NCBI GenBank assembly: GCA_022827835.1
Contig: JAJEIO010000032.1
Location: 117,748-181,747 of the forward strand
DNA length: 64,000 nucleotides
From: Candidatus Latescibacterota bacterium
Lineage (GTDB): Bacteria > Latescibacterota > UBA2968 > UBA8231
Direction of reading: 5' to 3'
In this document: positions 6,820-60,505 of the stretch, in pieces
Numbering within the stretch: position 1 is the first letter of the stretch
How the letters are laid out: every line of letters begins with the position of its first letter
Made by a program: the position numbers and the translations under genes
Notes under the pieces: generated by a model
What the model was told of the DNA's origin: nothing
The model's database searches: none
What the model saw: only the letters and a program-made list of their open reading frames with translations

Positions 6820-7170
6820 ATGGCAGGCGTGGCAGAACATTCCCCTCTCGACTACGGCGACCGCCTTGGTCGCCTCGAAGGCATCATTGAGCAGATCAAC
6901 GACCGCTTAGGCAGCTTGGAGCGTCGCATGAGCAGCTTAGAGGCCCAGATGGGCAGCTTGAAGAGCGATTTAGAGAGCCGCATGAGCAGCTTAGAGATCA
7001 AGTTAGAGGCTCGTATGAACAGTTTGAAGAGCGATTTAGAGGGGCGCATGAACAGCTTGGAGAATAGCCACCGCCGGGACTTTCGCTGGCTGATTGGCAC
7101 GATGATCGGCATGTGGGCGACGATGATGGGCTTGCTCGTGACGGTGACCGTTAAGGTCTTTTCGGGCTAG
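6820..7170 (+). CDS. Small coiled-coil protein with C-terminal membrane anchor (DUF1640/Bdr-like architecture)
   Basis: 116 aa. Degenerate repeats RM(S/N)SL(E/K)...SLKSDLE, followed by RRDFRWLIGTMIGMWATMMGLLVTVTV (a TM helix). GGAG lies just upstream, so the start is either ATG 6820 or GTG 6829. Confidence 0.6.
   Translation: MAGVAEHSPLDYGDRLGRLEGIIEQINDRLGSLERRMSSLEAQMGSLKSDLESRMSSLEIKLEARMNSLKSDLEGRMNSLENSHRRDFRWLIGTMIGMWATMMGLLVTVTVKVFSG
6904..7068 (+). repeat. In-frame degenerate tandem repeats (11/18-residue spacing) inside the coiled-coil gene
   Basis: cgcatgagcagcttagag occurs twice. ag(c/t)ttgaagagcgatttagag occurs twice. RM(S/N)SL recurs at residues 36, 54, 65 and 76. Confidence 0.8.
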
Positions 7171-7326
7171 CTGAAACTGTTACCGTATAGAAGCAAGTGT
7201 TACCGTACTTCCACAAATCCACCCCTACGAATTCCTAGTACTTAAAAAGCAGGTCAAGGCACATAGCGGCAGCGGGGAAGCCGCGCTATCGGTGTTGTGC
7301 AGCCGTGGGCACGAGGTCGCCGACTC

Positions 7327-8784
7327 CTATTCAACGCGCCGGTCTTCCAGCCAATAGGCGTATAGCCGCGCTTGGTGCAAGTAGAACTTCAGGCGCACTG
7401 GTTTTTCAAATACCAGATCGTGCGGGTGTTTCCACGCGTATTTGGCGCACAGACTGTCGCCGGTAAAGGGCGGCGGTTCCTCTCCGGGTACCCAGAAGTT
7501 AGGAAGGGGCCTACCGGTCTCGGCGTCTTGGATCTCGGCGTAGATTTCGCCCCAGCGGGCGTCGGCGTTGAGGTAGAGGTCTTGGCCGCGCCAGTGGAAG
7601 GGTTGGGTGACGAGGGTGGCGATTTCGTCGCCGTCGATGGAGACGAAGCGGTCGGGCGGCAGCTTGGCCAAGCAGAGCGCACCCGGGTCGGCGAAGTGGC
7701 GCTCTTCTACTCCGAGTCGGAACAGTTCCTTGCAGCGGTTGAAGCGCTGGTACATTTCCACGCTGCCCGGTATGCGGAGGGCGTTGTAGTAAGCCCAAAT
7801 CTCGCCGTCTTCGCGCACCAGCGGCGCGCCGGCCATGAGGAGCTGGCTGGTGCCGTAGTTTTCCCCGTCCCAAGGTTCGATACCGATAAAGGGCGTGCGG
7901 TCGGCCACGCGGTCCCAGGTGTGCAGGTCGCGCGAGACGGCCATTTCGATCTGGTTGATGCGGGTGAAATTGGTGGCTGGCGGCGGGATGGCACCGATGG
8001 GGTTGAAGACGGTGGGGAAGCCGATGTACAGCCCCTGATAGGGCATGACGGCCATGTTGTAGATTTCGGCGTGGTAGTCTTCGTCATCGACGATTGGTGG
8101 GGTGATGTACGCGGGATCGTCGACGATGGTGCGGACGCGTTGGCGGCAGTTTTCCCAATCGCTTTCGTCGGCGTGGAAGATGAGTTCGGGCTCGGTGAAG
8201 TGGTCGAAGTCGCGGCTGGTCGCCAGCCAGACCGAGCGACCCCATTCGGTGGGCTGCTTGACCATGGCGAGGAATTGCTCGGTATAGGGGTCGTACACAA
8301 ACTGGGACTCGTCTTGGCTGGGGATGAAGGAGCTGGGGAGCGGGGTCCAAGCAAAGCCGTCGGGCGAGACGGCACCGTCGCGGCCACTGCTGCCGAACAG
8401 GGCCTTGTAGCGGCGGTTCGGGTCTGGGTCGTGCTCGTCGCGGACGATGTGGTACAGGCCTGGGCCGTTGGGGTCGCAGGCGATGTTGTTGTCTTTGCTG
8501 CCGTTTGACTCGTATAGCCCAAGGGAGGGTTTTTCCCAGTGCTCGCCGTCGCGGGAGGTGGCAAAGCGGGCTTGCGGGCCGTTGTACCACCATTCGTAGC
8601 GTCCCTCGTCCGGGTTCCACAAGGGCGCGCTGCGGCTCTGGATGCCGCCGGCGATGAGGGGGCCGCACTTTTTGGGCGGGTGTAGGGTGCGGGTGGTGCC
8701 TTGCTCAGAGACTAAGGCGCGGTTGTCGAGGAAGAGTTGATGGTGCTTTTTGGGGTCGATGAGGTCGGTGGACATGGTTATCAC
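7327..8784 (-). CDS. Predicted glycoside-hydrolase-like beta-propeller protein (GH32/43/130-like fold), paralogue of 48076..49518
   Basis: 485 aa. LFLDNRAL..., RFATSRDGEHWEKPSLGLYESNGSKDNNI, AVSPDGFAWT. It shares these blocks with the 48076 gene (LFIDERLF, YAESADGLHWEKPVLGLVEFRGSRDNNI). The start is GTG 8784, abutting the upstream stop, or ATG 8775. Confidence 0.5.
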   Translation of the reverse strand: MITMSTDLIDPKKHHQLFLDNRALVSEQGTTRTLHPPKKCGPLIAGGIQSRSAPLWNPDEGRYEWWYNGPQARFATSRDGEHWEKPSLGLYESNGSKDNNIACDPNGPGLYHIVRDEHDPDPNRRYKALFGSSGRDGAVSPDGFAWTPLPSSFIPSQDESQFVYDPYTEQFLAMVKQPTEWGRSVWLATSRDFDHFTEPELIFHADESDWENCRQRVRTIVDDPAYITPPIVDDEDYHAEIYNMAVMPYQGLYIGFPTVFNPIGAIPPPATNFTRINQIEMAVSRDLHTWDRVADRTPFIGIEPWDGENYGTSQLLMAGAPLVREDGEIWAYYNALRIPGSVEMYQRFNRCKELFRLGVEERHFADPGALCLAKLPPDRFVSIDGDEIATLVTQPFHWRGQDLYLNADARWGEIYAEIQDAETGRPLPNFWVPGEEPPPFTGDSLCAKYAWKHPHDLVFEKPVRLKFYLHQARLYAYWLEDRRVE

Positions 8785-9786
8785 TCATAGCGCAAAGGGT
8801 GGAATGCGGAGGAACGCGCCCCCTTGCCGGGCGGACTCTTGGGCCAGCAGGCAGGCTTGGGCTGTGGCGAATACCGAGCGGGTGGGGATGAAGAGGTCGG
8901 TGCCGCGTTCAATGGCGTCGATCAGGTTGGCGACGAACGCGCCGCTTTGGTCTGCGGGGAGATCGGGTGCGTACGGTTCGCGTTCGTTGGTGGCGATGAG
9001 CAGGTGGTTGTCGGCATAGGCGCGTAGGTGTGCCGAGCCGGCCGTCCCCATGATGATGAAGCGAGTGTCGCCAAACGAGGGCGCGGCTTGGGGCGTAAGC
9101 CAGTCGGCGGTGAGGGTGGCCAACGCGCCGTCGGATAGCGCGAAGGAAGCCTGCACGTGGTCGTCTAGGCGCGGTTCCTCGGTAAACCGCTTGCAGGTGG
9201 TGAGGGCGTGGACGCCGACGCATTCGGCATTGGTGAGCCAGCGGATTTGATCGACGCCGTGGCAAGCGAGGTCGTGGAACGCGCCCGTGTACTGATTTGG
9301 ATCGAAATACCACGCTGGGGCTGTGTCACGGCGGATCTTGTGCGGGTGGGTGGAGATGAGGCTGGCGATGGTCCCAAGCGCGCCGTCGAGAATGGCTTGG
9401 CGCAGGGCGATAAACGGCGGATAGCTGCGCGAGGTGAACCACATGGATACGTGGATTGCGCTGGCGGCGACAGCGCGGCGCATGCGCTCCCAGTCGTAGA
9501 GCGAGTGGCACAGGGGTTTGTCGAGGAGCAGGTGAATGCCGGCACGGGCGCAGGTTTCTACGAGCGCGGTTTTCTCGTGGTGGATCAAGCCTTCGAGGAT
9601 TAGCTCGGGCCGGGCGCGGTCGATCATGTCCTCCAAGGTGGTAAAGCGGGGGATGGATGAATAGCGTTCGCAGAGTGCGTCGTCGTCTTCAACCAAGCCG
9701 ACGATCTGGCCGTTTGTTGCCTGTAAGGCGGATTGGATCATGCCGCCGATGTGGCCGTAGTGGACGCCCATGATGCCGATGCGCAT
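8785..9786 (-). CDS. Gfo/Idh/MocA family oxidoreductase
   Basis: MRIGIMGVHYGHIGGM..., LLLDKPLCHS (the EKP-type motif). The stop abuts the start of the 7327..8784 gene. Confidence 0.8.
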   Translation of the reverse strand: MRIGIMGVHYGHIGGMIQSALQATNGQIVGLVEDDDALCERYSSIPRFTTLEDMIDRARPELILEGLIHHEKTALVETCARAGIHLLLDKPLCHSLYDWERMRRAVAASAIHVSMWFTSRSYPPFIALRQAILDGALGTIASLISTHPHKIRRDTAPAWYFDPNQYTGAFHDLACHGVDQIRWLTNAECVGVHALTTCKRFTEEPRLDDHVQASFALSDGALATLTADWLTPQAAPSFGDTRFIIMGTAGSAHLRAYADNHLLIATNEREPYAPDLPADQSGAFVANLIDAIERGTDLFIPTRSVFATAQACLLAQESARQGGAFLRIPPFAL

Positions 9787-50332: not shown

Positions 50333-51157
50333 ATGAAGCTAGGGATTTTCCACAAGGTTTTTGAGCGGCCGACGCTGGAGGAGAGCCTCGATGGGGTGCA
50401 GGCCGCTAGTTTGGAGGCCGTGCAGCTCGATTTGACGGCTGCGGGCATTGATCCGGCGGCGATGACGGACGCCGATTGCGAGCGGATTCGCGCTGCACAC
50501 GCAACGCGCGGCATTGAGATTGCCGCGCTGTCGGGGACTTTCAACATCATTGACCCCGACTTGGAAAAGCGCCGTGCTGGAATGCAATGGCTCGCCGCTC
50601 TAGCTGCTGCGAGCGGCAAGTTGGGGATGGAACTGATCACTTCCTGCACGGGGACACGCAATCCCGACTGGCTGTGGGGCGGGCATCCAGACAACAGCAC
50701 GCCGGCTGCATGGGCCGAGATGGTCGCGGCTATGGGAGAAGCTGTGGAGATTGCCGAGGCGCGAGGTGCGACTTTGGTCTTTGAGCCGGAGGTCAACAAT
50801 GTGGTGGATTCGGCGCAGAAGGCGCGGCGCTTGCTCGACGAGGTGCAGTCTAAGCATTTGCAGGTGGTTATCGACGGAGCCAACCTGTTCCACGCTGGTC
50901 AGCTACCGAGGATGCGCGAGGTCTTAGACGAGGCATTCGATCTGCTCGGGGATTCGATTCGGCTGGCTCACGCCAAGGACTTGGAACAGGACGGCGACGT
51001 CGGGCACCAAGCCGCGGGCACAGGGCTGCTCGACTACGATCACTACTTGGCGTGCTTGCGGCAGATAGGTTTTGACGGTTCGTTGATATTGCACAGCCTA
51101 GAGGAAGAACAGGTAGCGGCGTCAGCGGCTTTTGTGCGCGGGCGCATGAATACTTGA
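50333..51157 (+). CDS. Sugar phosphate isomerase/epimerase (xylose isomerase-like TIM barrel)
   Basis: ORF 50255..51157. ATG 50333 gives MKLGIFHKVF... LVFEPEVNNV, IRLAHAKD. Confidence 0.75.
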   Translation: MKLGIFHKVFERPTLEESLDGVQAASLEAVQLDLTAAGIDPAAMTDADCERIRAAHATRGIEIAALSGTFNIIDPDLEKRRAGMQWLAALAAASGKLGMELITSCTGTRNPDWLWGGHPDNSTPAAWAEMVAAMGEAVEIAEARGATLVFEPEVNNVVDSAQKARRLLDEVQSKHLQVVIDGANLFHAGQLPRMREVLDEAFDLLGDSIRLAHAKDLEQDGDVGHQAAGTGLLDYDHYLACLRQIGFDGSLILHSLEEEQVAASAAFVRGRMNT

Positions 51158-51171
51158 GAAAGGAACGAGAG

Positions 51172-52200
51172 ATGTCTGAAGGCAAGTTGCGCGCGGCCGT
51201 TATTGGCGCTGGCGTGGGTGGAGGGCATGGATACGCATACGCCCGCGCCCCGGAATACGAATTCGCGGCGGTCTGCGACATAAACCCGGAGGTGTGGGCG
51301 CGCTTTTACGAGCGGGCTGAGATTGAGCGAGGATTCGTCGCCGAATACGCGGATTATCGCGAGATGTTGGCGCAGGAGCGCCTCGACGTGGTGAGCGTGG
51401 CCACCCCAGATCACCTCCACGCAGACCCGGTTTGCGATGCGGTGGCCGCAGGTGTGCGCGGCATTTTCTGCGAGAAGCCGCTGGCGACCACTGCGGAGGA
51501 TGCCGATCGCATCATCGACGCGCTCGCCCGCCACAACGCGGTGTTGTCGGTAGATCACACGCGCAGTTGGCTGCCTTCCTATCAGGCTGTGCGTACAGCC
51601 ATTCGCAGCGGTGAGATCGGCAGCCTGACGAGGATTGTGGCCCACTTAGGCGGTCGTCGCGCCATGCTCTTTCGCAATGGGACGCACTTGGTGGATGCGG
51701 TGTGCTTTTTTGCGGACGCCGAGCCGGTGTGGGTGATCGCCGCGCACGAGCGCGGGTTTGAAGACTACGGCCCGGTGTACGATGGCCGGGGCGGCAGGGA
51801 TCCACAATTCGATCCTGGATCGACGATCATCGTGGAGTTTGCCAATGGGGTGCGCGGGCTGATCAATTGCGCCAAGCGGACGCCGCAGATGTTCGAGTTG
51901 GACCTACAGGGCACGGACGGTCGCTTCTGGGTGACCGATCAGCAGTGCATGGCTTGGAAGACCGACACCTCTGAGGGGACGCCCGAGGCGGTGTCGCCGC
52001 CGCCGGGCCGGGGATATGCCAGTCCGTTTGGTGCGAACTTGATTCCGGCTGTGCAGGAGCTGGCGCAAGCGATACAGGGCGAGGCAGTTAGCTCGTCACC
52101 GGCGGTGCGCGGCCGCCACGTGCTGGAGATTATGGTAGCTGCGCTGTGGTCGCAGGCTGAGGGGAGTGCGAAGGTGGAACTGCCGCTGCCGAGGGGTTGA
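51172..52200 (+). CDS. Gfo/Idh/MocA family oxidoreductase
   Basis: ORF 51154..52200. ATG 51172 preferred. LRAAVIGAGVGGGHG, GIFCEKPLATT. Close paralogue of the 29148..30134 gene. Confidence 0.85.
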   Translation: MSEGKLRAAVIGAGVGGGHGYAYARAPEYEFAAVCDINPEVWARFYERAEIERGFVAEYADYREMLAQERLDVVSVATPDHLHADPVCDAVAAGVRGIFCEKPLATTAEDADRIIDALARHNAVLSVDHTRSWLPSYQAVRTAIRSGEIGSLTRIVAHLGGRRAMLFRNGTHLVDAVCFFADAEPVWVIAAHERGFEDYGPVYDGRGGRDPQFDPGSTIIVEFANGVRGLINCAKRTPQMFELDLQGTDGRFWVTDQQCMAWKTDTSEGTPEAVSPPPGRGYASPFGANLIPAVQELAQAIQGEAVSSSPAVRGRHVLEIMVAALWSQAEGSAKVELPLPRG

Positions 52201-52304
52201 CGAACGCTACGCAACCTCGCAGTGGGAAACATAAAAAACAGGGGTTATTGGCGGGTGTGGCAGGCGGAGCAATCCGCTGGATCGCGGTAATTATGCAATA
52301 AAAA

Positions 52305-52331
52305 GCTCCGCCGAGTAACTCTCGACGGAGC
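52305..52331 (-). terminator. Intrinsic terminator-like hairpin downstream of the GYD gene
   Basis: gctccgccgag / ctcgacggagc (11-bp stem, 1 mismatch, 5-nt loop). On the minus strand it is followed by TTTTTATTGC. Confidence 0.55.
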
Positions 52332-52369
52332 CTGCGCATTACACGGCACGAGCCGGAGGGACCGGCGTA

Positions 52370-52690
52370 TCAAGCTCCCGGGGGCCGGTAGGGCACGCTT
52401 TTCCCGATGGCCTCGTCTATGGTTTCCGGCGTGACCAGTACGGTAACGCTAATGTCTAGCGCGCCGGCGTTGCCGATGACCATGGACACGGCTGCGGCCG
52501 TAGCGTCGTCGGGAAGATCGGCAATTATGTAGAGATCCGGATCTCCGAAGGCGTAGTAAAGCGCTTCCACACTGCCACCCATTCCCTCAATGGTCTGAGT
52601 TAATGCCTCCCGTCGCCGCGTGCCGCCTTCTTTCAGCAGACCAGCAAGCCCAGCTTGCGTGTACGTCGAGCGAAACATGTACTTACCCAT
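52370..52690 (-). CDS. GYD domain protein
   Basis: MGKYMFRSTYTQAGLAGLLKEGG..., GDPDLYIIADLPDD. 106 aa. Confidence 0.8.
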   Translation of the reverse strand: MGKYMFRSTYTQAGLAGLLKEGGTRRREALTQTIEGMGGSVEALYYAFGDPDLYIIADLPDDATAAAVSMVIGNAGALDISVTVLVTPETIDEAIGKSVPYRPPGA

Positions 52691-52836
52691 TAGCTTCCAT
52701 CCTTTCTATTGAAAAGTGGACTAGGAATGTAAATGGCTATTCAACAGTACGCAGCATTGGAACTTGGGGCAAACTAAAACGACGACCTTTTTGCCGTGTC
52801 CTGTGCTATGGCAGAGTGAGGGAGCTAGAGTAGCCT

Positions 52837-54777
52837 TCACTCCGGCAGCGCCAGCGCCAAAAGCTGCGGCACCCAGTTGTCGCTGTTGATTGGAAATACG
52901 ATATACTGACGCCCTTCGGCCATATAGCTGATGGGACTGCCGTTGGGGTTGCCGGGGAATTCCATCTCGGCCAGCACTGCGCCTGTATCTAGATCGAAGG
53001 CGCGCAGGTAAGGACCATTCTCGACAAAGGCGTCGCCGCTGACGTCTCCCCACCATCCGGGCCGTTGCGAGACCACCACCAGCACGGTCTCGGTGGCGAG
53101 TATGAAGTTGTAGTGGAACCAGCCCATAGCGGGCAGGTCGAGGTCGCGCAGGGTTTTGTGGTTGATGGGTCCTTTGCCCACCGGATTCATCCAGACGTGC
53201 TCGCCAGTGTCCAAGTCGATGGCGGTGATCCGGCCGTAGGGAGGTTTGGTCAGCGGTAGGCCATCGACGTGTTCGGAGTCGTCCTTAAAGAAGGCGTAGT
53301 CCGAAAAGGTGCGCAGGCCCTCCACTTTTTCCAGCCGCACGATGTCGGGACGGGTGCGCGAGGGGACGTAGAGTACGTTCTTTTTTGGCACTAGCGCCGC
53401 GCCGCTCCAATCCGAGCCGCCCAAGCCTCCAGGCAATACCAGTGTGCCCTTTTCGCTAGGTGGGGTGAACAGCGGGCCGTGCTCGTATTTTTGCAGGATC
53501 GCCAGCGCCTTTTCTCGCAGCTCGGGCGTAAAGTCGATCAGGTCGTCTTCTTGTAGCCCCTGGCGGTCGTAGGGCGCGGGCTTGCTGGGGAAGGGCTGGG
53601 TCGGCCAGCTCTGCTCGCCTGGAGTTTGCGACTGGGGCACCTCGCGCTCTTGGATGGGCCAGACTGGCTCGCCGGTCGTGCGGTCTAAGACGTAGCAGAA
53701 GGCCTGTTTGCTCACTAGGGCCAGGGCCTTGATCGCTTTGCCTTGTACCTCGATATCGGCCAAGACCGGCGGTGCTGGCGGGTCGTAGTTCCACAGGCCG
53801 TGGTGGATGAGTTGGTAGTGCCAGACGCGCTCGCCGGTTGCCGCCTTGAGGCAGACCAGCGTCTGGCTGAAGAGGTTGGCACCGGGGCGCTCGCCGCCGT
53901 AGTGGTTGTGGGTGGTGCTGCTGACGGGCAGGTACACGTAGCCTAACTCGTCGTCGGCGCTCATTGCGGACCACACATTGGCTTGGCCATAGGTCTGATA
54001 GGCGTCGTTTTCCCAAGTGTCGTTGCCGTACTCGCCCTCCTGCGGCACCGTCTGGAAGATCCACACCTGTTCGCCGGTGTGGGCGTCGAAGCCGCGCACG
54101 TCGCCGGGGGTGGAGTACTTGGCGGGAGGCCGGTCGTGCCAGTCGGTGATGCCTGAACCCACTACTACCACGTCGCGGCAGATGATCGGTGGTGCGGTGA
54201 TGCAGTAGCGGCTGCGGTCGATGCGGCGGCGCAGCCCCTTGCCTAGATCGACGAAGCCGCCCGCACCGAACTCTGGGTCGGGCTGGCCGGTCTTGATGTC
54301 GATTGAGTAGAGGCGGTCGGAAGCCGTGCCGTAGAAGATGCGCTTCTTGTCGCCGCTTTCCCAGTAGGCGATGCCGCGCGCAAAGCCCCAGAAATCGCCT
54401 CGATCCTTCCACGACTGCGGATCGAAGGTCCACAGTTCCTCGCCGCTTGTCGGGTCGATGGCGCTGAGGATGTTGAACGGCGATCCATAGTAGAGCACGC
54501 CGTCGATGACCAGCGGTGTGCCCTTGTTCCACCAATTCCACAAATCCTCGGCCGCGGCGATTGCGCTGTCCGGGACTGTGTAGCGCCAAACCTCCTGCAA
54601 CTGGGCGAAGTTGTCGCCGTCAATCTGGGACAGGGGTGCGTATTTGCTGCTGTTGGCGTCGGCCGCGTAATAGGGCCATTCCTCGCCTCGGGTTGCTCCG
54701 GCGGCAAGGATCAGCAACGCGCCGACGAACAATCGTGTCTGGTGCATGGGTTGGGTCTTTCTCGCTGTAAAGTTCAT
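52837..54777 (-). CDS. PQQ-dependent dehydrogenase (quinoprotein glucose/alcohol dehydrogenase family beta-propeller)
   Basis: EWPYYAADANSSKYAPLSQIDGDNFAQLQEVWRY, FDAHTGEQVWIF, repeated W-containing blades. The start overlaps the upstream stop (ATGA). Confidence 0.8.
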   Translation of the reverse strand: MNFTARKTQPMHQTRLFVGALLILAAGATRGEEWPYYAADANSSKYAPLSQIDGDNFAQLQEVWRYTVPDSAIAAAEDLWNWWNKGTPLVIDGVLYYGSPFNILSAIDPTSGEELWTFDPQSWKDRGDFWGFARGIAYWESGDKKRIFYGTASDRLYSIDIKTGQPDPEFGAGGFVDLGKGLRRRIDRSRYCITAPPIICRDVVVVGSGITDWHDRPPAKYSTPGDVRGFDAHTGEQVWIFQTVPQEGEYGNDTWENDAYQTYGQANVWSAMSADDELGYVYLPVSSTTHNHYGGERPGANLFSQTLVCLKAATGERVWHYQLIHHGLWNYDPPAPPVLADIEVQGKAIKALALVSKQAFCYVLDRTTGEPVWPIQEREVPQSQTPGEQSWPTQPFPSKPAPYDRQGLQEDDLIDFTPELREKALAILQKYEHGPLFTPPSEKGTLVLPGGLGGSDWSGAALVPKKNVLYVPSRTRPDIVRLEKVEGLRTFSDYAFFKDDSEHVDGLPLTKPPYGRITAIDLDTGEHVWMNPVGKGPINHKTLRDLDLPAMGWFHYNFILATETVLVVVSQRPGWWGDVSGDAFVENGPYLRAFDLDTGAVLAEMEFPGNPNGSPISYMAEGRQYIVFPINSDNWVPQLLALALPE

Positions 54778-56333
54778 TCGGCCAAGCCCTGATAGAGGGC
54801 ACTAATTTCCGCGGTGGTTAGTACGCGGTCGTAGAGCCGCGCGTCGTCTAAGGTCCCGGTGAAGAAGAAGTCCGTTTCGTCGAGGTTTTTCGCACCAATG
54901 TAGATGGGCTGATCGGGCGAGATTTTGACCGCGCTCTGCTTCTGCTCTTGCAATACGCCATTGACGAAGAGCCGGTGATAATCTCCGTCGAAGACGGCTG
55001 CGAAATGGTACCAGTGCCCTTGGCGCAAAAGGAGCTTGGCGTGGAGGTCGTCGTCGCGCATCCGGTGCCAGGTGACTCGCCGTCCTCGGGTACTGAGTTG
55101 GAACACGCGCACTCCGCCGCCGTCGTCCTGCGCCCAGATGCAATTGTTCCACCAGTAAGGGCGCGTTTCGATCTCGTCGTACTTGGCCCAGATTGAGACG
55201 CTGAAGGGGCCATCGAGCAAAAAGCCTTCGATATCGACGACGGCTTTGCCGTCGAAGTAACCGGCACCGTCTTTGTCGCCGGCGCGGTCCTCGGTGAAGA
55301 CTACTTTGACGTTTTTGAGCGGGCGCTGATGCGGGCTGGTGTCGCGAATCTCGCCGTCGAATAGGACTTCAAGGAGTAAGTCCTCGCGGCCCGGCGGGTT
55401 TGGCTCGGGCAGCCCTGCACCGGGATCGGCTGCCTCATCTCCCCAGCGCACCTCCACGTCATACCAGTCGGCCCCGCTGTCCTGGTCGGCGAAGACGATG
55501 CTTAGGGTGTCGCCGGGCGCTTGGGGTTCCCGCTCTAACTGCGCGACATCGCGCGCATTGTGTTTGACTAGGTGGTACTGCGCGTCGGAAGGCCATGCGA
55601 CCTTGTCAGCAAAATACACCTTGCGGGTCTTGTCGCCCTGCCAGATGGGTTGCCAGCGCACTCCATTGACCTCGACGGGCGAAAAGCCGTCGCCGTCCTC
55701 GTGCCGCCCGGGCAGGGCACCGTAGCTGTGCTCGACCCACAGCCCTTCGCTGTCTGCAAATACCTCGTCGCCGCCATCGACGAAGATGCGGACGCGAAGC
55801 TGCTCGCCGCGTGGTTCGACGGAGACTGTCTTGTATTCCTCGGCAGGTACTTGGTGGAGGACGCCGGCGATTTTCCAGCCGTCGTCCGTCCGGTCGAGCA
55901 AATAGGCGTTGTATTGCTCGTCGCCGACGGGGCCGGACACTCCCACCAAGTGCTCCTGCGTGATGGCCATCGCTCGGTTGCCCCACAGGAGGATGTCGAA
56001 AAACTCGGCCTTTTTGATGTACTGGTGGATTTCCGGGTCGTAGTCCCAGGCGTCGCCGCCGGTCCACTCGACGACGATCCCGTCGAGGAACTCCTCGCGG
56101 GACTGGACCTTGCGCAAAAGCCAGGTCTGCGGCTCTTGGCGACTGCGCATGTCGAGCTCGACGACGCTCTCGCCGATCAGGTCTTCGGCGACGACGAAGT
56201 CCTGCTGGTTCCACGCCTCGTAGAAGCGCTGTACTACATCTTGTATCTGCTGGATGTCAGGGCGTTCGTCGCCAAAGGCGAGGGCCGGATGCAACAGGCA
56301 CAGAGCTAGTAAGACATTTGCTACAGAGTTCAT
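54774..56333 (-). CDS. Secreted protein with NTF2/SnoaL-like N-terminal domain and C-terminal LamG domain
   Basis: Signal MNSVANVLLALCLLHPALAFG. VVQRFYEAWNQQDF (SnoaL-like). C-terminal FSVSIWAKY...GHWYHFAAVFDGDYHRLFVNGVL...FTGTLDDARLYDRVLT (LamG). Confidence 0.65.
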   Translation of the reverse strand: MNSVANVLLALCLLHPALAFGDERPDIQQIQDVVQRFYEAWNQQDFVVAEDLIGESVVELDMRSRQEPQTWLLRKVQSREEFLDGIVVEWTGGDAWDYDPEIHQYIKKAEFFDILLWGNRAMAITQEHLVGVSGPVGDEQYNAYLLDRTDDGWKIAGVLHQVPAEEYKTVSVEPRGEQLRVRIFVDGGDEVFADSEGLWVEHSYGALPGRHEDGDGFSPVEVNGVRWQPIWQGDKTRKVYFADKVAWPSDAQYHLVKHNARDVAQLEREPQAPGDTLSIVFADQDSGADWYDVEVRWGDEAADPGAGLPEPNPPGREDLLLEVLFDGEIRDTSPHQRPLKNVKVVFTEDRAGDKDGAGYFDGKAVVDIEGFLLDGPFSVSIWAKYDEIETRPYWWNNCIWAQDDGGGVRVFQLSTRGRRVTWHRMRDDDLHAKLLLRQGHWYHFAAVFDGDYHRLFVNGVLQEQKQSAVKISPDQPIYIGAKNLDETDFFFTGTLDDARLYDRVLTTAEISALYQGLAE

Positions 56334-56441
56334 ATTTCCCCTCGAAGACTGAACGGTTGTTCACTACAGAACTAAAGCACGAGGGGCAATTGAACAGTGT
56401 CAATGCGCTTAATTGTCTGGGTGCGGGACTAGGCACTCTGT

Positions 56442-56505
56442 CCGCGTATCATCGCCAAGAACCGCTGGGCATTCCCGGCAAAGTGATCTTCAATTTCCGC
56501 GGGCG
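56442..56505. repeat. Direct repeat, distal copy (pseudo 3' end of the amidohydrolase gene)
   Basis: ccgcgtatcatcgccaagaaccgctgggcattcccggcaaagtgatcttcaatttccgcgggcg. The minus-strand translation is PAEIEDHFAGNAQRFLAMIRGQSA*. Confidence 0.9.
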
Positions 56506-56527
56506 GATGGGGACTAGGGCAATCCCT

Positions 56528-57772
56528 CTACGGCTTGCCGATCAGGACGATCCGATTGGTGTTGGTGCCTTTTTTGCGGTTGTCCACGCCCCAGCAGTTT
56601 GCGGTCTTGGTGAACATTTGATCGTTGACCAAGACCATCAGCGGCTTGAGGCCAGCCTCCGTGGCCGCGGGCACGACGAGGGTTTCCAGTAGGATTTTGC
56701 CATTGCGGACCTCGCCCACCTCAAAGGCAACAAAGCCCCCGCTTGCGAGGATCCGGTGCAACTCTCGGAAGGTGCAGGTCATCGCTGCTTGCCAGTCCGC
56801 TGGTTTTTTTAATTGCCATATAGCCACCTCTTTGGCATCGATGCCGTTAAACCAGCAGCGCAGCCAGTTGTCTGCTTGGTAGTTGACGATGTCCAAAAAG
56901 GGCGGCGAGGTAACGGCGAGTTGGATGGATTCGCTGACGATGGCGGAGGTATTGTCAGACGAGCCGGTTACGAGCAGGGGGGTATTCGCCGTCAGCGTTT
57001 CCAGCTCGCGTGCTTGCAGCTTGCTCAGTAAGGATTTCGTCTTGCGGAGGATGATGGCCTTTATGTCGCGTTCAGGCGGTACTTGAGCGCGTTTTTGGTT
57101 GATGCGTTTTTGCGACTCAATGGACACCGCCTGATTAGGCGGCAGCGTATATACGGAGAAAAATCCCGGCGAGTGCCCGGTCAGGCGGTTGGTCGCCACC
57201 ATCTGAATCCACGCATCAACGCGGTCGAGTGGCCCTTCTTGGCGGCGTGTGAGGAGGTAGGAGCGCAGGTTGACGATTTGGCGAAGCGTATTGGGGTGAT
57301 AAAAGACGAGGAGATCGTCCCAGACCTCGCTCGATTTGTCGAGGTCCAGCGCCGTCAAGCGCGTTTCTACTTCGTTCCATGTGGGTGGATCTAGGCGAGG
57401 GCGGACTAGGCGCTCGCTGAGGGGGTTTATGTCGCAGCCGATGGGGCGGCGGCCTAACAGCGCTGCTTCGAGGACCGTGGTGCCGCGCCCCATGAACGGG
57501 TCGTACACTGCGTCGCCGGGTTGCGTCAGGCGGCTGATGAAAAACCTCGGCAATTGCGGCTTGAAACAGGCGCGATAGGAGACCTCGTGGAGCGAGTGGG
57601 CGGCGCGCTGCTTGGCGGTCCAAAACTCGTTGACGTACACCGGAATGGAAACGGTCGGATCGGGAAAGTCGAGGATGTTTGTCTCTTTGCCAAAATCCAC
57701 AAAGGCTTGGATTTCGTCGGCGAATTCGCTGGCGTTTAGAGGTTTATTCCTCGCCAACGCACTAGCTCCCAC
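56528..57772 (-). CDS. Site-specific DNA methyltransferase (N4-C or N6-A; motif I before motif IV), apparently orphan
   Basis: AVYDPFMGRGTTVLEAALLGRRPIGCDINP (AdoMet motif I) at about residue 90 and VTSPPFLDIVNY (catalytic SPPF) at about residue 293. GTG start at 57772 overlaps the amidohydrolase stop. The exact start is uncertain. Confidence 0.8.
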   Translation of the reverse strand: MGASALARNKPLNASEFADEIQAFVDFGKETNILDFPDPTVSIPVYVNEFWTAKQRAAHSLHEVSYRACFKPQLPRFFISRLTQPGDAVYDPFMGRGTTVLEAALLGRRPIGCDINPLSERLVRPRLDPPTWNEVETRLTALDLDKSSEVWDDLLVFYHPNTLRQIVNLRSYLLTRRQEGPLDRVDAWIQMVATNRLTGHSPGFFSVYTLPPNQAVSIESQKRINQKRAQVPPERDIKAIILRKTKSLLSKLQARELETLTANTPLLVTGSSDNTSAIVSESIQLAVTSPPFLDIVNYQADNWLRCWFNGIDAKEVAIWQLKKPADWQAAMTCTFRELHRILASGGFVAFEVGEVRNGKILLETLVVPAATEAGLKPLMVLVNDQMFTKTANCWGVDNRKKGTNTNRIVLIGKP

Positions 57773-58754
57773 CGCGCATCATCGCCAAAAACCGCTGGGC
57801 ATTTCCGGCAAAGTGATCTTCGATTTCCGCAGGCGTTAGTTGTAGCATCTCGGCTACTTGCCGCTCTTGGCGCAGTTGCTCGTAGATGACGAGCGTGGCC
57901 CGGGAATCGCAGTGCGGCGTGCCGGCCTCGTCACCAGGATAAAACAGCCAGGCGCGGCCATAGGTGATGTACTTGCCGCGTGCACAGCCGGCGACCACGT
58001 TGTCCGACCCGAACATCACCCGCTTGCGGTCTTCGTGTTTCATCAGCAGGTAGTGCGCATATAAGTCGTTCACTGCCGAGGTGTCGTACCATATATTCGG
58101 CAGGTCGCACAGGAAGTGGACGGCTTCTTCCATCATAAAGGAATTGAACGAGCGGGCGCAGTGGGCCAAAATCCACTGTGCGTTGGGGTATTCGCGGGTG
58201 TAGCGCGCTAAGTCGCGCTGGTTATCTGGGTCGGCGGGGCCGGTGGGTTTGGCGAGGTGCATGGTGATGGCCAGCTTCTTGTGGTGGGCGACTTCGATGA
58301 GGGATTCCGGGAGGAAGTCGCAGATGCGGGCGCCGACCGGGTCTGGGGCAAAGGTGCGGTAGGGTTTGAGGCCGAGGAAGCCGTACTCATCGACTTGGGC
58401 CGCTACGTATTCGGGCGTCATGTCCGGGGTGACCATCATGTTGATCGCGGATTCGGGGTCGGCGGCAAGTTCGGCCGCCATCCAGGCGTTGTGTCCGGCG
58501 GCGTCCATGCCCGGCATTGGAGTGCCCAAGACCAGCATGTGGAAGGCGCGGCCCGGGTAGAGTTTGGCCGCCCAGTCGAGGTGGTCCTGGTAGTCGATCT
58601 CCTCGCGCAGGCCGGTAGGCGCGCCCGTGAGGGAGCCTCGGTGGGCCTCAGACCACATGTGCGTGTGCATGTCGTAAACCGTGGCGGGGACGAAGTCTTC
58701 GAGTTCTCGTTCCCAGAGTTGGCGGTCGAAGTCTTCATAGGTGAAAGTAGTCAT
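57762..58754 (-). CDS. Amidohydrolase_2 family metal-dependent hydrolase
   Basis: VYDMHTHMW (HxH), ITMHLAKP, ILAHCARSF, MFGSDN. Confidence 0.75.
   Translation of the reverse strand: MTTFTYEDFDRQLWERELEDFVPATVYDMHTHMWSEAHRGSLTGAPTGLREEIDYQDHLDWAAKLYPGRAFHMLVLGTPMPGMDAAGHNAWMAAELAADPESAINMMVTPDMTPEYVAAQVDEYGFLGLKPYRTFAPDPVGARICDFLPESLIEVAHHKKLAITMHLAKPTGPADPDNQRDLARYTREYPNAQWILAHCARSFNSFMMEEAVHFLCDLPNIWYDTSAVNDLYAHYLLMKHEDRKRVMFGSDNVVAGCARGKYITYGRAWLFYPGDEAGTPHCDSRATLVIYEQLRQERQVAEMLQLTPAEIEDHFAGNAQRFLAMMRGGS
57772..57835. repeat. Direct repeat, proximal copy (true 3' end of the amidohydrolase gene)
   Basis: ccgcgcatcatcgccaaaaaccgctgggcatttccggcaaagtgatcttcgatttccgcaggcg. It encodes PAEIEDHFAGNAQRFLAMMRGGS*. 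Confidence 0.9.
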
Positions 58755-58832
58755 GGCGTTGTGCTCCCAAGCGGCGCGTTTGACAGAAAATGGCAGGCAA
58801 CCTAGTGTTGCCCCAAAAGGAGGAAATCCGAG

Positions 58833-59720
58833 ATGAACAAGGAAAAGATAGTACCCGAACTAGTCGTGGAAAAGGACGCGCTCATCGGCGAAGGGGCCGT
58901 TTGGGATGCGGACGACGAGTTGTTGTACTGGGTCGATATCCTCGGCCACGAGGTCTATGTGTACGATCCGGTGAGCGGAATCAACCGCACTATCCCCACG
59001 TGCCAAGCCGTGGGCACGGTGGTCAAGCGGCAAAGCGGCGGCCTCGTCGTGGCCCTGCACAATGGCTTTGCCCACATCGACTTGCGGACGGAGCGCATGG
59101 TGCCCCTCGGCGAAGACCCGGAGTGTGAGGTCCCCGCCAACCGCTTCAACGACGGCAAGTGTGACCCGGCTGGGCGGCTGTGGGCGGGGACGATGGAGTT
59201 TGGGGGTGCCCGGGATCAAGGCGCGCTCTACTGTCTCGATGTGGATCACTCCGTCAGTAGGAAGGTAGAGTCGGTCAGCGTGTCCAACGGCATCGTCTGG
59301 AGCTCCGATCAGCGGACTATGTACTTCATTGATTCTGGCTTGAACAACGTGCGTGCGTACGATTACTGCCGCGACAGTGGGGACATCAGTAACGAGCGCG
59401 TGGTGGTGGAGTACGGAGGACCGGGGGTGTTAGACGGCATGGCCATCGACGAGGAAGACGCTTTGTGGATCGCCGTGTTCGGAGGGTGGTGCGTCCTGTG
59501 TTACGACCCCCGCTCTGGGGAGTTGCTGCGCCACTTGGAACTGCCCATGTCCAATGTGACCTCGTGTGCCTTTGGCGGCGCGGAGCTGGACCAGCTTTAC
59601 ATCACTTCGGCTTGTCGGGGTTTGGATGCTGAGGCGCGGCAGGCTCAGCCTTTGGCCGGTTCGCTAGTGCGGGTTGATCCGGGCGTGCGCGGCGTACCCT
59701 CGGATGCGTTTGCCGGCTAG
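58833..59720 (+). CDS. SMP-30/gluconolactonase/LRE-like (regucalcin family) lactonase
   Basis: GEGAVWDADDELLYWVDI, RFNDGKCDPAGRLWAGTM, SNGIVWSSDQRTMYFIDS, DGMAIDEEDALWIA, LYITSA. Confidence 0.88.
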   Translation: MNKEKIVPELVVEKDALIGEGAVWDADDELLYWVDILGHEVYVYDPVSGINRTIPTCQAVGTVVKRQSGGLVVALHNGFAHIDLRTERMVPLGEDPECEVPANRFNDGKCDPAGRLWAGTMEFGGARDQGALYCLDVDHSVSRKVESVSVSNGIVWSSDQRTMYFIDSGLNNVRAYDYCRDSGDISNERVVVEYGGPGVLDGMAIDEEDALWIAVFGGWCVLCYDPRSGELLRHLELPMSNVTSCAFGGAELDQLYITSACRGLDAEARQAQPLAGSLVRVDPGVRGVPSDAFAG

Positions 59721-60505
59721 ATGGCGATGGCGCGCATCTCGTCCGACCAGTCGCGCCACATGTCTTTTTGCGGTGGCTCCTGCTGAGTCTGTTCGATGTC
59801 CTTTTTGAGAAAATCGTAGAGCACGGCTTGGCGCAGTTGGCGCGAGGTGTTCGGGCTGGCCATGTGGCCGAGACGGTGGTGCCAGAAGACGATGTCGCCG
59901 GCTTGGCCGTGGGTATCGACGGGCGTGCGCTGGTTGAACTCGGTGCGCACTTTTTCGTAGGCGGCTTCGTCTTGGTCGCGGAGGTACTGCGAGGTGAAAG
60001 TCGGGTAGAAGGAACGGTGGCTTTCGGGCCAGACCATGAAGCTGCCGCCGTTGGGCGGCACGTCGTCGATGTAGCCGACTACGCCGAGGTGGAAGGGGTG
60101 GCCGTCGGTGTGGCAGCCTAGGGTTTGGGGCGGGTGATCGCCGTAGGGCAGGGTGCAGTAGATGCCGCGAATGCGCTCGGGCTGGACGAGCTGGCCCTTG
60201 CCGAGCATTTGTTCAGCCATGGCCCACACCTTGGGATCGGTGGCCAGCAGGCGCACCATCCACTCCTCGCCGCCCGGCTCGCGGAAGTTCCAGCGAAAGC
60301 CGCGGCGGTGGTTGGCACCGTCGGGGTTTTCTTCGTCTTCGCGGAAGGGACCAACCCAAGTGTCGGGGTCGTTGCGGTGGCGGCTCGGGGGTGCGCCGTC
60401 CCACAGCCGAGTGCGGGCGCGCTCCATGAGCGCGGGGTCGAGTACGCCTCGTTTGATGAGGTAGCCGTTGCGCTTGAAGAAGCGCATTTCGTCGGTCGTC
60501 AGCAT
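59717..60505 (-). CDS. PhyH family Fe(II)/2OG dioxygenase
   Basis: FFKRNGYLIKRGVL, GCHTDGHPF (HxD), VWPESHRSF, WHHRLGHM. Confidence 0.75.
   Translation of the reverse strand: MLTTDEMRFFKRNGYLIKRGVLDPALMERARTRLWDGAPPSRHRNDPDTWVGPFREDEENPDGANHRRGFRWNFREPGGEEWMVRLLATDPKVWAMAEQMLGKGQLVQPERIRGIYCTLPYGDHPPQTLGCHTDGHPFHLGVVGYIDDVPPNGGSFMVWPESHRSFYPTFTSQYLRDQDEAAYEKVRTEFNQRTPVDTHGQAGDIVFWHHRLGHMASPNTSRQLRQAVLYDFLKKDIEQTQQEPPQKDMWRDWSDEMRAIAI

Follow-up and report, generated by a model that had tools for sequence, protein, structure and literature searches.

A solitary DNA methyltransferase between duplicated gene ends in a Latescibacterota genome, a probable remnant of an inserted restriction-modification operon

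We examined a 64,000-nucleotide stretch of a Candidatus Latescibacterota bacterium (GenBank assembly GCA_022827835.1, contig JAJEIO010000032.1, positions 117,748 to 181,747; referred to here as the window), in which an intact DNA methyltransferase (MTase) gene lies between two direct repeats that duplicate the 3' end of the adjoining amidohydrolase gene. We judge it likely that this locus is a decayed restriction-modification (R-M) operon, which was inserted with a long target duplication and which has since lost its restriction endonuclease (REase, R) and retained its MTase (M). The evidence comprises the repeat itself, the identities of the genes, a deletion series among related genomes, a second independent duplication in another phylum, and purifying selection on the MTase. 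The features that the argument needs are listed below; all genes in the region, the relic included, lie on the minus strand.

57762 to 58754, minus strand: host amidohydrolase gene, Amidohydro_2, 330 aa (open reading frame (ORF); PF04909, E 1.3e-15).
57772 to 57835, minus strand: proximal target copy, the functional amidohydrolase 3' end, last 64 nt before the junction (59/64 repeat; eight-genome comparison).
57742 to 57771, minus strand: putative deletion junction with the 30-nt filler TGGGAGCTAGTGCGTTGGCGAGGAATAAAC (junction alignment across relatives).
56528 to 57772, minus strand: solitary Type II DNA MTase (ORF, Pfam, PADLOC, motifs; intact in 22 genomes; dN/dS 0.15).
56506 to 56527, minus strand: 22-nt stretch from the MTase stop to the distal repeat, the right end of the inserted DNA (right-junction alignment).
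56429 to 56505, minus strand: distal target copy, a 77-nt displaced relic of the amidohydrolase 3' end, containing the repeat at 56442-56505 (repeat alignment; eight-genome comparison).
54774 to 56333, minus strand: LamG-domain gene, the present downstream neighbour (PF13385).

Computed alignment bore out the repeats of the initial annotation, a first reading of the letters alone: 56442-56505 and 57772-57835 are identical at 59 of 64 positions (spacing 1330; blastn E ~1e-19 to 1e-20), and blastn found no third copy in the 64-kb window. The proximal copy is the genuine end of the amidohydrolase, whose C-terminus ends ...PAEIEDHFAGNAQRFLAMMRGGS, and the distal copy encodes PAEIEDHFAGNAQRFLAMIRGQSA with a stop of its own (TAG, 56429-56431), having kept the ancestral-type tail ...RGQSA*. 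Exactly one intact MTase stands between them, as first described, the other ORFs there being only antisense or overlapping frames; the inserted segment measures 1.27 kb in the window and reaches 3.6 kb in a relative (L007; we use such locus numbers for related genomes and contigs). The longest perfect run between the two copies of the window is 17 nt, an identity that is short for efficient homologous excision, given RecA substrate requirements. We found no integrase or transposase gene within ~10 kb of the cassette and no tRNA gene in the window, and the composition gives no strong foreign-DNA signal, the MTase being only slightly lower in GC (58.0%) than its neighbours (61-62%).

The relatives supply what the window lacks. 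Across species-representative genomes, the MTase occurs at 83-97% identity in ~22 Latescibacterota metagenome-assembled genomes (MAGs) and at ~58-70% in many other phyla. The order PhyH, SGL, amidohydrolase, a variable segment, MTase recurs in ~24 Latescibacterota genomes or contigs with proteins ~90-99% identical (amidohydrolase orthologues 92-99% in ~20 loci), followed downstream by LamG/PQQ or GFO_IDH genes, and since this identity holds across the whole neighbourhood, the MTase is vertically inherited within the clade. In about seven of these genomes, L007, L010, L014, L016, L022 and L086 among them, both R and M are present at the orthologous locus, the R gene lying directly upstream of the MTase within the same repeats and overlapping its start. 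The view that the insertion had carried a single-gene cargo thus fell, and a cognate endonuclease overlapping the MTase was the very arrangement that the initial annotation had named as speaking against its interpretation. Its observation that no restriction enzyme, integrase or transposase is adjacent in the window itself stood: a tblastn search with the family REase found no homologue in the 64 kb (no match better than E 0.085).

In these longer forms, R is an ORF of 244-245 aa that ends at or overlaps the MTase start and whose C-terminal ~155 residues match the PADLOC REase_II model PDLC03550 (E 4e-48). A stand-alone form of ~158-160 aa has ~1100 homologues, unnamed in their sources, and R directly precedes or overlaps M in several other phyla; given the R ORF of the relatives and this adjacency, we assign the MTase, on sequence evidence, as the predicted M half of a compact R-then-M Type II operon. 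An AlphaFold2 model of the REase (44 homologues; mean predicted local distance difference test 88) has its best matches in R.PvuII and the PvuII-like NhoI and Eco15I domains (Foldseek probability 1.0, template modelling (TM) score ~0.45), and the family has invariant residues D62, D65, K70, E72 and R74. The lost partner is therefore predicted to be a PD-(D/E)XK-type, PvuII-like endonuclease. A sequence search of the REase against the PDB returned only spurious SH3 matches, Pfam gave no match, and tblastn against plasmids gave nothing. As an additional observation, the Latescibacterota REase carries a ~90-aa N-terminal extension (MELITSEVL...; L016 7210-7485, L001 4007-4291) that matches no Pfam family, is lacking in the ~158-aa REases from other phyla, and is the sole survivor of R in L001, as a 94-aa ORF.

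The likeness to the PvuII system is partial. With R.PvuII (PDB 1f0o, 1pvu) the predicted REase shares small size (~157-160 aa), PD-(D/E)XK type and a PvuII-like fold, but there is no detectable sequence similarity and the fold match is modest at the TM score given above. With M.PvuII (PDB 1boo) the MTase shares amino-MTase character, an SPP[FY] motif and weak similarity in the AdoMet region, whereas its AdoMet motif (residue 91) stands ~190 residues before its catalytic motif (residue 289); the beta-class order of M.PvuII is the reverse (classes of Malone 1995). Also unlike the PvuII system, no controller (C) protein gene is evident.

The segment between the amidohydrolase stop and the MTase varies in length among the relatives in a manner that suggests how R was lost. 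It measures 2.3 kb in L007, L010, L014, L022 and L086 (a Schlafen-like ORF, a 276-aa ORF and R), 1.1 kb in L016 (an 81-aa ORF and an intact 245-aa R ORF), 0.65 kb in L001 (the 81-aa ORF and the N-terminal 94 aa of the R-fusion ORF), 0.4 kb in L018 (an REase fragment), 0.1 kb in L015 and L060, and 0 kb in the window and ~10 other genomes. C-terminal R fragments are kept in L018 and L019, and read by their sequences, L001, L018, L019 and the window form a deletion series. The junction of the window is identical in L005, L006, L008, L009, L013, L021 and L023 (at least eight species, including the window), and longer junction forms are found in L001, L007, L010, L014-L016, L018 and L022. At this junction, the ancestral tail of the amidohydrolase, the cassette genes upstream, R and the first ~13-16 codons of the MTase have all given way to the filler, so that the amidohydrolase ends ...RGGS* in the window as against ...RG(Q/P)xA* in L001, L016, L018 and the distal copy. 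The 30-nt filler contains the new amidohydrolase stop (57762-57764), a Shine-Dalgarno (SD)-like GGGAG (57766-57770) and a candidate TTG start (57755-57757).

In another Latescibacterota species, L019 carries the same R-M lineage (7678-9239; MTase 87% identical) at a different chromosomal locus, with an internally deleted REase (99 aa) and an intact MTase (420 aa). By its sequence, this case would represent an independent loss of R with retention of M, showing both mobility and repeated R loss in this lineage. No viral vehicle was apparent in IMG/VR, where only two distant MTase relatives (51-57%) were found.

Other variation was seen at these loci. The two extra genes between the amidohydrolase and R in L007 (5670-6284 and 6383-7213; also in L010, L014, L022 and L086) encode a 204-aa Schlafen/AlbA_2 protein (PF04326) and a 276-aa protein without a family match, of which the 81-aa ORF of L001 and L016 is a C-terminal remnant; they may be defence genes that joined the R-M pair to form a mini defence island. 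In the more divergent Latescibacterota L020 and L027 (~7100-8000), the amidohydrolase gene is missing and R (or an N-terminal fragment of it) plus M directly follows SGL, so here the locus has also lost the host target gene. In L001, an IS200-like Y1 transposase gene (PF01797; 425-1734) interrupts PhyH, two genes upstream of the amidohydrolase, and has no counterpart in the window.

The repeats are not confined to loci that hold the MTase alone: in L007 and L016, they enclose the complete cassette with R. In the eight genomes that keep the distal copy, its left boundary falls at the same nucleotide and is preceded by the same 22-nt insert end (8/8), a uniformity that points to a single insertion event. 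Where the ancestral tail is kept (L001, L016 and L018), the two copies can be aligned past the stop codon for a further 9 nt, over ~82-85 bp in all; the repeat itself is 64 bp in the window and 79-82 bp in L001 and L016. A convergent GFO_IDH_MocA gene ends directly against the distal copy in L008, L015 and L016, and the last three duplicated bases, TCA, would be the stop codon of that gene. The most parsimonious interpretation of these sequences is an insertion between convergent genes with stops 6 nt apart, the duplication having left both of them intact. Neither an integrase, a transposase nor a tRNA gene was found in or near the cassette in ~24 related genomes. All ingroup genomes contain the insert; a scan of amidohydrolase relatives added one further filled site (L086), outgroups with an amidohydrolase 80-86% identical have one gene end, no R-M and a different neighbour gene, and in L002-L004 (84% identical) the downstream region is not syntenic.

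An independent occurrence of the same architecture was found in a Verrucomicrobiia MAG (L063), in which a homologous R and M pair (identity to the Latescibacterota counterparts 60% for the MTase and 65% for the REase) lies between direct repeats of 68-72 bp, which are 93% identical and copy the 3' end of a MoxR AAA_3 ATPase gene, 72 bp being the length comparable with those given above. Here the MTase (7938-9284) has no stop of its own: its ORF continues into the duplicated MoxR end, from which the protein takes 23 host-derived residues at its C-terminus, and the duplicated stop codon shares bases with the ATG of the following gene (CCATGA). A relative of L063, L057, has the same insertion site and has lost the distal copy, and no integrase or recombinase gene lies in or near the cassette in either. 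Since a different host gene is duplicated in L063, the repeat is target-derived and not borne by the element.

These boundaries also bear on a simpler history, in which a duplicated or neighbouring amidohydrolase, with the MTase in between, was reduced to its last ~77 nt. The distal piece does retain the orientation, the reading frame and a stop of its own, as such a paralogue would; however, none of the eight distal copies, with their shared left boundary, is longer than ~85 bp, no second amidohydrolase (and, as the initial annotation required of its interpretation, no full-length paralogue in place of the distal repeat) occurs in the window or in the 17-kb related loci, and L063 has the same geometry with an unrelated gene. 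We regard paralogue decay as most improbable.

What has become of the distal copy is informative in its own right. Over 63 aligned positions in eight genomes, the mean number of differences is 3.6 among proximal copies and 6.2 among distal copies (1.7x faster), and the variants seen only in distal copies comprise four synonymous and five nonsynonymous changes, with ~21% synonymous expected at random. Distal copies have premature stops in L001 and L005 and a 23-bp insertion in L011; at least 11 genomes with an intact MTase lack the copy, some having an unrelated palindrome in its stead, and about half of the genomes or more have lost it. The window shows five differences, four of them synonymous and one an M-to-I change; two are derived in the proximal copy and necessarily silent because that copy is functional, one is a shared polymorphism, and two belong to the distal lineage (one silent, one M to I). 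Private variants of L008 are common to both of its copies, and proximal variants of one genome are found in distal copies of another, patterns that would indicate occasional gene conversion or recombination between the copies.

The four synonymous differences had led the initial annotation to propose a spare gene end maintained under selection; the count holds, and the selection is not supported. More broadly, the distal copy could be a functional, selected sequence, whether as an exchangeable end, as a regulatory element or terminator for the MTase or the LamG gene, or as a read-through extension of the MTase, and beside the synonymous differences one could cite that the MTase stop codon and the relic share a reading frame and that the MTase ORF of L063 reads into its duplicated gene end. 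The faster divergence, the 4:5 ratio of distal-only variants, the stops and insertion, the losses with the MTase intact, and the lack of any terminator-like site in the distal copy all run contrary to this, and we find it very unlikely. By its pattern of change, the distal copy appears to be a non-functional, decaying relic.

The replacing palindrome, a GC-rich sequence (TAGGGGGCGGTTTGCAAACCGCCCCCTA), occurs in eight genomes (L006, L009, L010, L012, L014, L017 and L023, ~9230-9265; L013, 9240-9330) and is absent from the window. It shortens the MTase by one codon (...IGK* vs ...IGKP*), and its several copies in L013 suggest a small REP- or MITE-like mobile palindrome.

We also considered site-specific or Campbell-type integration, in which a circular element carrying the R-M pair and its own amidohydrolase 3' end (attP-like) would have entered through an integrase or a single homologous crossover, the repeats then being attL and attR and different from the start. 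Integrative elements typically enter at a gene 3' end and regenerate the gene (discussed in PMC2853133), the copies are already 8% diverged, and the variants shared between proximal and distal copies across genomes show recombination acting on the repeats. On the other hand, no integrase or recombinase was found in or near the cassette in ~24 genomes, L063 or L057; the repeat of L063 comes from MoxR and hence belongs to the target rather than to the element; and a homologous crossover presupposes an earlier occurrence of the same structure, leaving the first event unexplained. The locus resembles tRNA- and tmRNA-type integrative islands in that repeats duplicate a gene 3' end around foreign DNA and leave the target intact, and differs from them in having no integrase, in the small size of the insert (1.3-3.6 kb), and in that this cargo lies between copies of an unrelated gene end in another phylum. 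We thus consider such integration unlikely, and of the att-like insertion scar first proposed we keep the scar that duplicates a host gene end and drop the att machinery.

The MTase itself appears to be in working order. It matches the REBASE-derived Type II PADLOC model MTase_II (PDLC03325) over its full length (E 8e-198), with the AdoMet motif DPFMGRGTT at residues 91-99 (57476-57502) and the catalytic motif SPPF at residues 289-292 (56897-56908), as initially noted; the factual statements of the initial annotation all held. Both motifs are those of the amino-MTases of PF01555 (N6_N4_Mtase), and the score lies above the gathering threshold (67.9 bits vs a cut-off of 26.7), with only profile positions 140-213 aligned; the order of motif I then IV differs from the beta-class order on which PF01555 is mostly built. 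The SPPF motif suggests a specificity for N4-cytosine. The 400-codon MTase core is intact in all 22 genomes examined, and dN/dS is 0.15 among R-less genomes and 0.17 among genomes with R; the solitary MTase is under purifying selection.

As first reported, a GTG at 57772 overlaps the amidohydrolase stop and opens the ORF of 414 codons. However, the TTG at 57757 (409 aa) is the more likely start, as judged from the GGGAG that precedes it with an 8-nt spacer; in L005, with an identical junction, gene callers picked the TTG start and 409 aa. Since the conserved core starts only at ~residue 14 of the family profile alignment, the MTase of the window is probably unimpaired despite the loss of its first ~13-16 native codons. 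The scanned region showed no promoter-like site on the minus strand, and no intrinsic terminator-like site separates the MTase from the amidohydrolase, which makes it most likely that the MTase is co-transcribed with the amidohydrolase and translationally coupled or re-initiated, in keeping with the expression first proposed for it. Candidate reasons for retaining it, drawn from R-M biology, are protection against re-invasion or R-carrying neighbours, and epigenetic regulation.

From these observations we infer an order of events and a manner of insertion as follows. A compact Type II R-M operon (a ~160-aa PvuII-like endonuclease, then a ~420-aa MTase) would have inserted at the amidohydrolase 3' end in the ancestor of the clade, without an integrase or transposase, duplicating ~82-85 bp (the last ~74 nt of coding sequence, the stop, a 6-nt spacer and the convergent GFO_IDH_MocA stop) and leaving both flanking genes intact. 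The endonuclease gene would later have been deleted in several steps; in the allele of the window, everything from the amidohydrolase tail to about MTase codon 14-16 would have gone, the amidohydrolase gaining a new three-residue tail and stop, and the MTase a new start codon, either directly behind that stop (TTG 57757) or overlapping it (GTG 57772). The MTase would now be solitary, constitutively co-transcribed and kept by purifying selection, and the distal 64-bp copy would decay slowly, being occasionally homogenised with the proximal one by gene conversion or recombination.

Several points weigh against this history. No strict empty site was found, the empty-site comparison proposed at the outset having yielded none among related genomes and a gapped DNA pattern (amidohydrolase end, 6 nt, GFO_IDH end) having matched nothing in JGI metagenome contigs, so the single-copy target and the direction of change are deduced rather than observed. 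The window is closest to L007, which has R, across the amidohydrolase, MTase, relic (99.5%), LamG and PQQ genes (compared region 52837-60505), yet its R-less junction is common to more distant genomes (L005, L006, L008 and others); this discordance requires recombinational exchange of alleles or incomplete lineage sorting. Alleles with and without R thus seem to have been exchanged or sorted without regard to the genome around them, and recombination among these lineages is likely, judging from these comparisons. Long flanking repeats occur in only two of ~12 independent contexts with R and M, plus a marginal 21-nt repeat in L024, so a long duplication is not a constant property of this R-M family. 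The 30-nt filler resembles the 3' end of the 81-aa ORF only tentatively and below significance (shuffle fraction 0.06-0.24), the largest cassette forms hold two extra genes of undated arrival, and the literature offers no established mechanism for long target duplications.

The scarcity of long repeats could reflect either decay or an occasional mode of insertion; L024 apart, no flanking repeats were found in ~10 other contexts with R and M or in ~50 solitary-MTase contexts from other phyla. In L024, also a member of the Latescibacterota, 21-nt direct repeats (7278-7298 and 9275-9295) surround a degraded REase and an MTase 70% identical, with a score of 18.5 vs a shuffle maximum of 13; they may be a decayed or shorter target duplication.

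Under a stronger proposal, the compact PvuII-like R-M pair would be a mobile unit in its own right and bring about its own insertion, for instance by breaking gene 3' ends at staggered positions ~70-85 nt apart, and the repeats could serve excision, amplification and allele exchange. A virus-like life cycle of R-M systems has been proposed by Kobayashi's group (PMC2853133) and is not known to have been demonstrated. The two independent events, in two phyla, share their geometry (duplications of 72 and ~85 bp ending at or just past the host stop, and an insert end within a few nt of the M stop), which, with the discordance between the presence of R and genome similarity, is compatible with such a unit; we nevertheless hold it to be rather improbable.

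Downstream, the LamG gene is probably not the original neighbour of the target site, because the relic abuts the convergent GFO_IDH_MocA stop in L008, L015, L016 and L022. In the window, a ~4.2-kb block (GYD, PQQ dehydrogenase and LamG; 52201-56428) separates the relic from the GFO_IDH_MocA gene (51154-52200); the block is absent from those four loci, and in L001 the PQQ gene is present and the LamG gene absent. Its presence and absence mark a second insertion/deletion polymorphism at the same intergenic spot.

The decayed R-M operon that we favour would belong to a known class. Furuta, Abe and Kobayashi (2010; NAR 38:2428, PMC2853133) described R-M insertion with long target duplication, defined by R and M within an insert of <20 kb, a repeat of >30 bp and no other mobile element; their duplications span 46-423 bp, involve all R-M types and in some cases overlap gene 3' ends. 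They credit the first description to their group's earlier work on H. pylori (Nobusato et al. 2000) and suggest double-strand breakage and a virus-like life cycle (PMC2853133). In the window, the insert is below 20 kb, the repeat exceeds 30 bp and mobility genes are lacking. As in that class, no integrase or transposase is present, the insert is a few kb, the target-derived repeats overlap a host gene 3' end, and their lengths (64-85 bp here, 68-72 bp in L063) fall within the published range. Unlike those cases, only M survives in the window, R and M being found together at orthologous loci and in L063; no empty-site genome is available for the three-way comparison of that paper; the host is a member of the Latescibacterota, a phylum absent among its cases; and the insertion is old, with copies 8% diverged in many species, rather than a strain polymorphism. 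The kind of event is thus already described, and the locus of the window is a clean example of it.

Orphan MTases that arose by REase loss from R-M systems are reported as uncommon, only 9-13% of pan-genome families containing both states (Oliveira, Touchon and Rocha 2014; NAR 42:10618, PMC4176335). Our MTase is of that sort, an R-M-homologous MTase left alone after the loss of its REase, and differs in that the in-situ route can be followed as a deletion series at one orthologous locus, with and without R among close relatives. Here the natural history of one R-M system from an uncultured phylum can be traced in good resolution, and the locus, as a counter-example to the rarity of solitary MTases from in-situ R-M decay (PMC4176335), has some illustrative value. 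It also adds two cases, one from the Latescibacterota and one from the Verrucomicrobiota, to the mechanistically unexplained class of long target duplications. For annotation, short duplicated gene ends beside solitary MTases can mark former R-M insertions.

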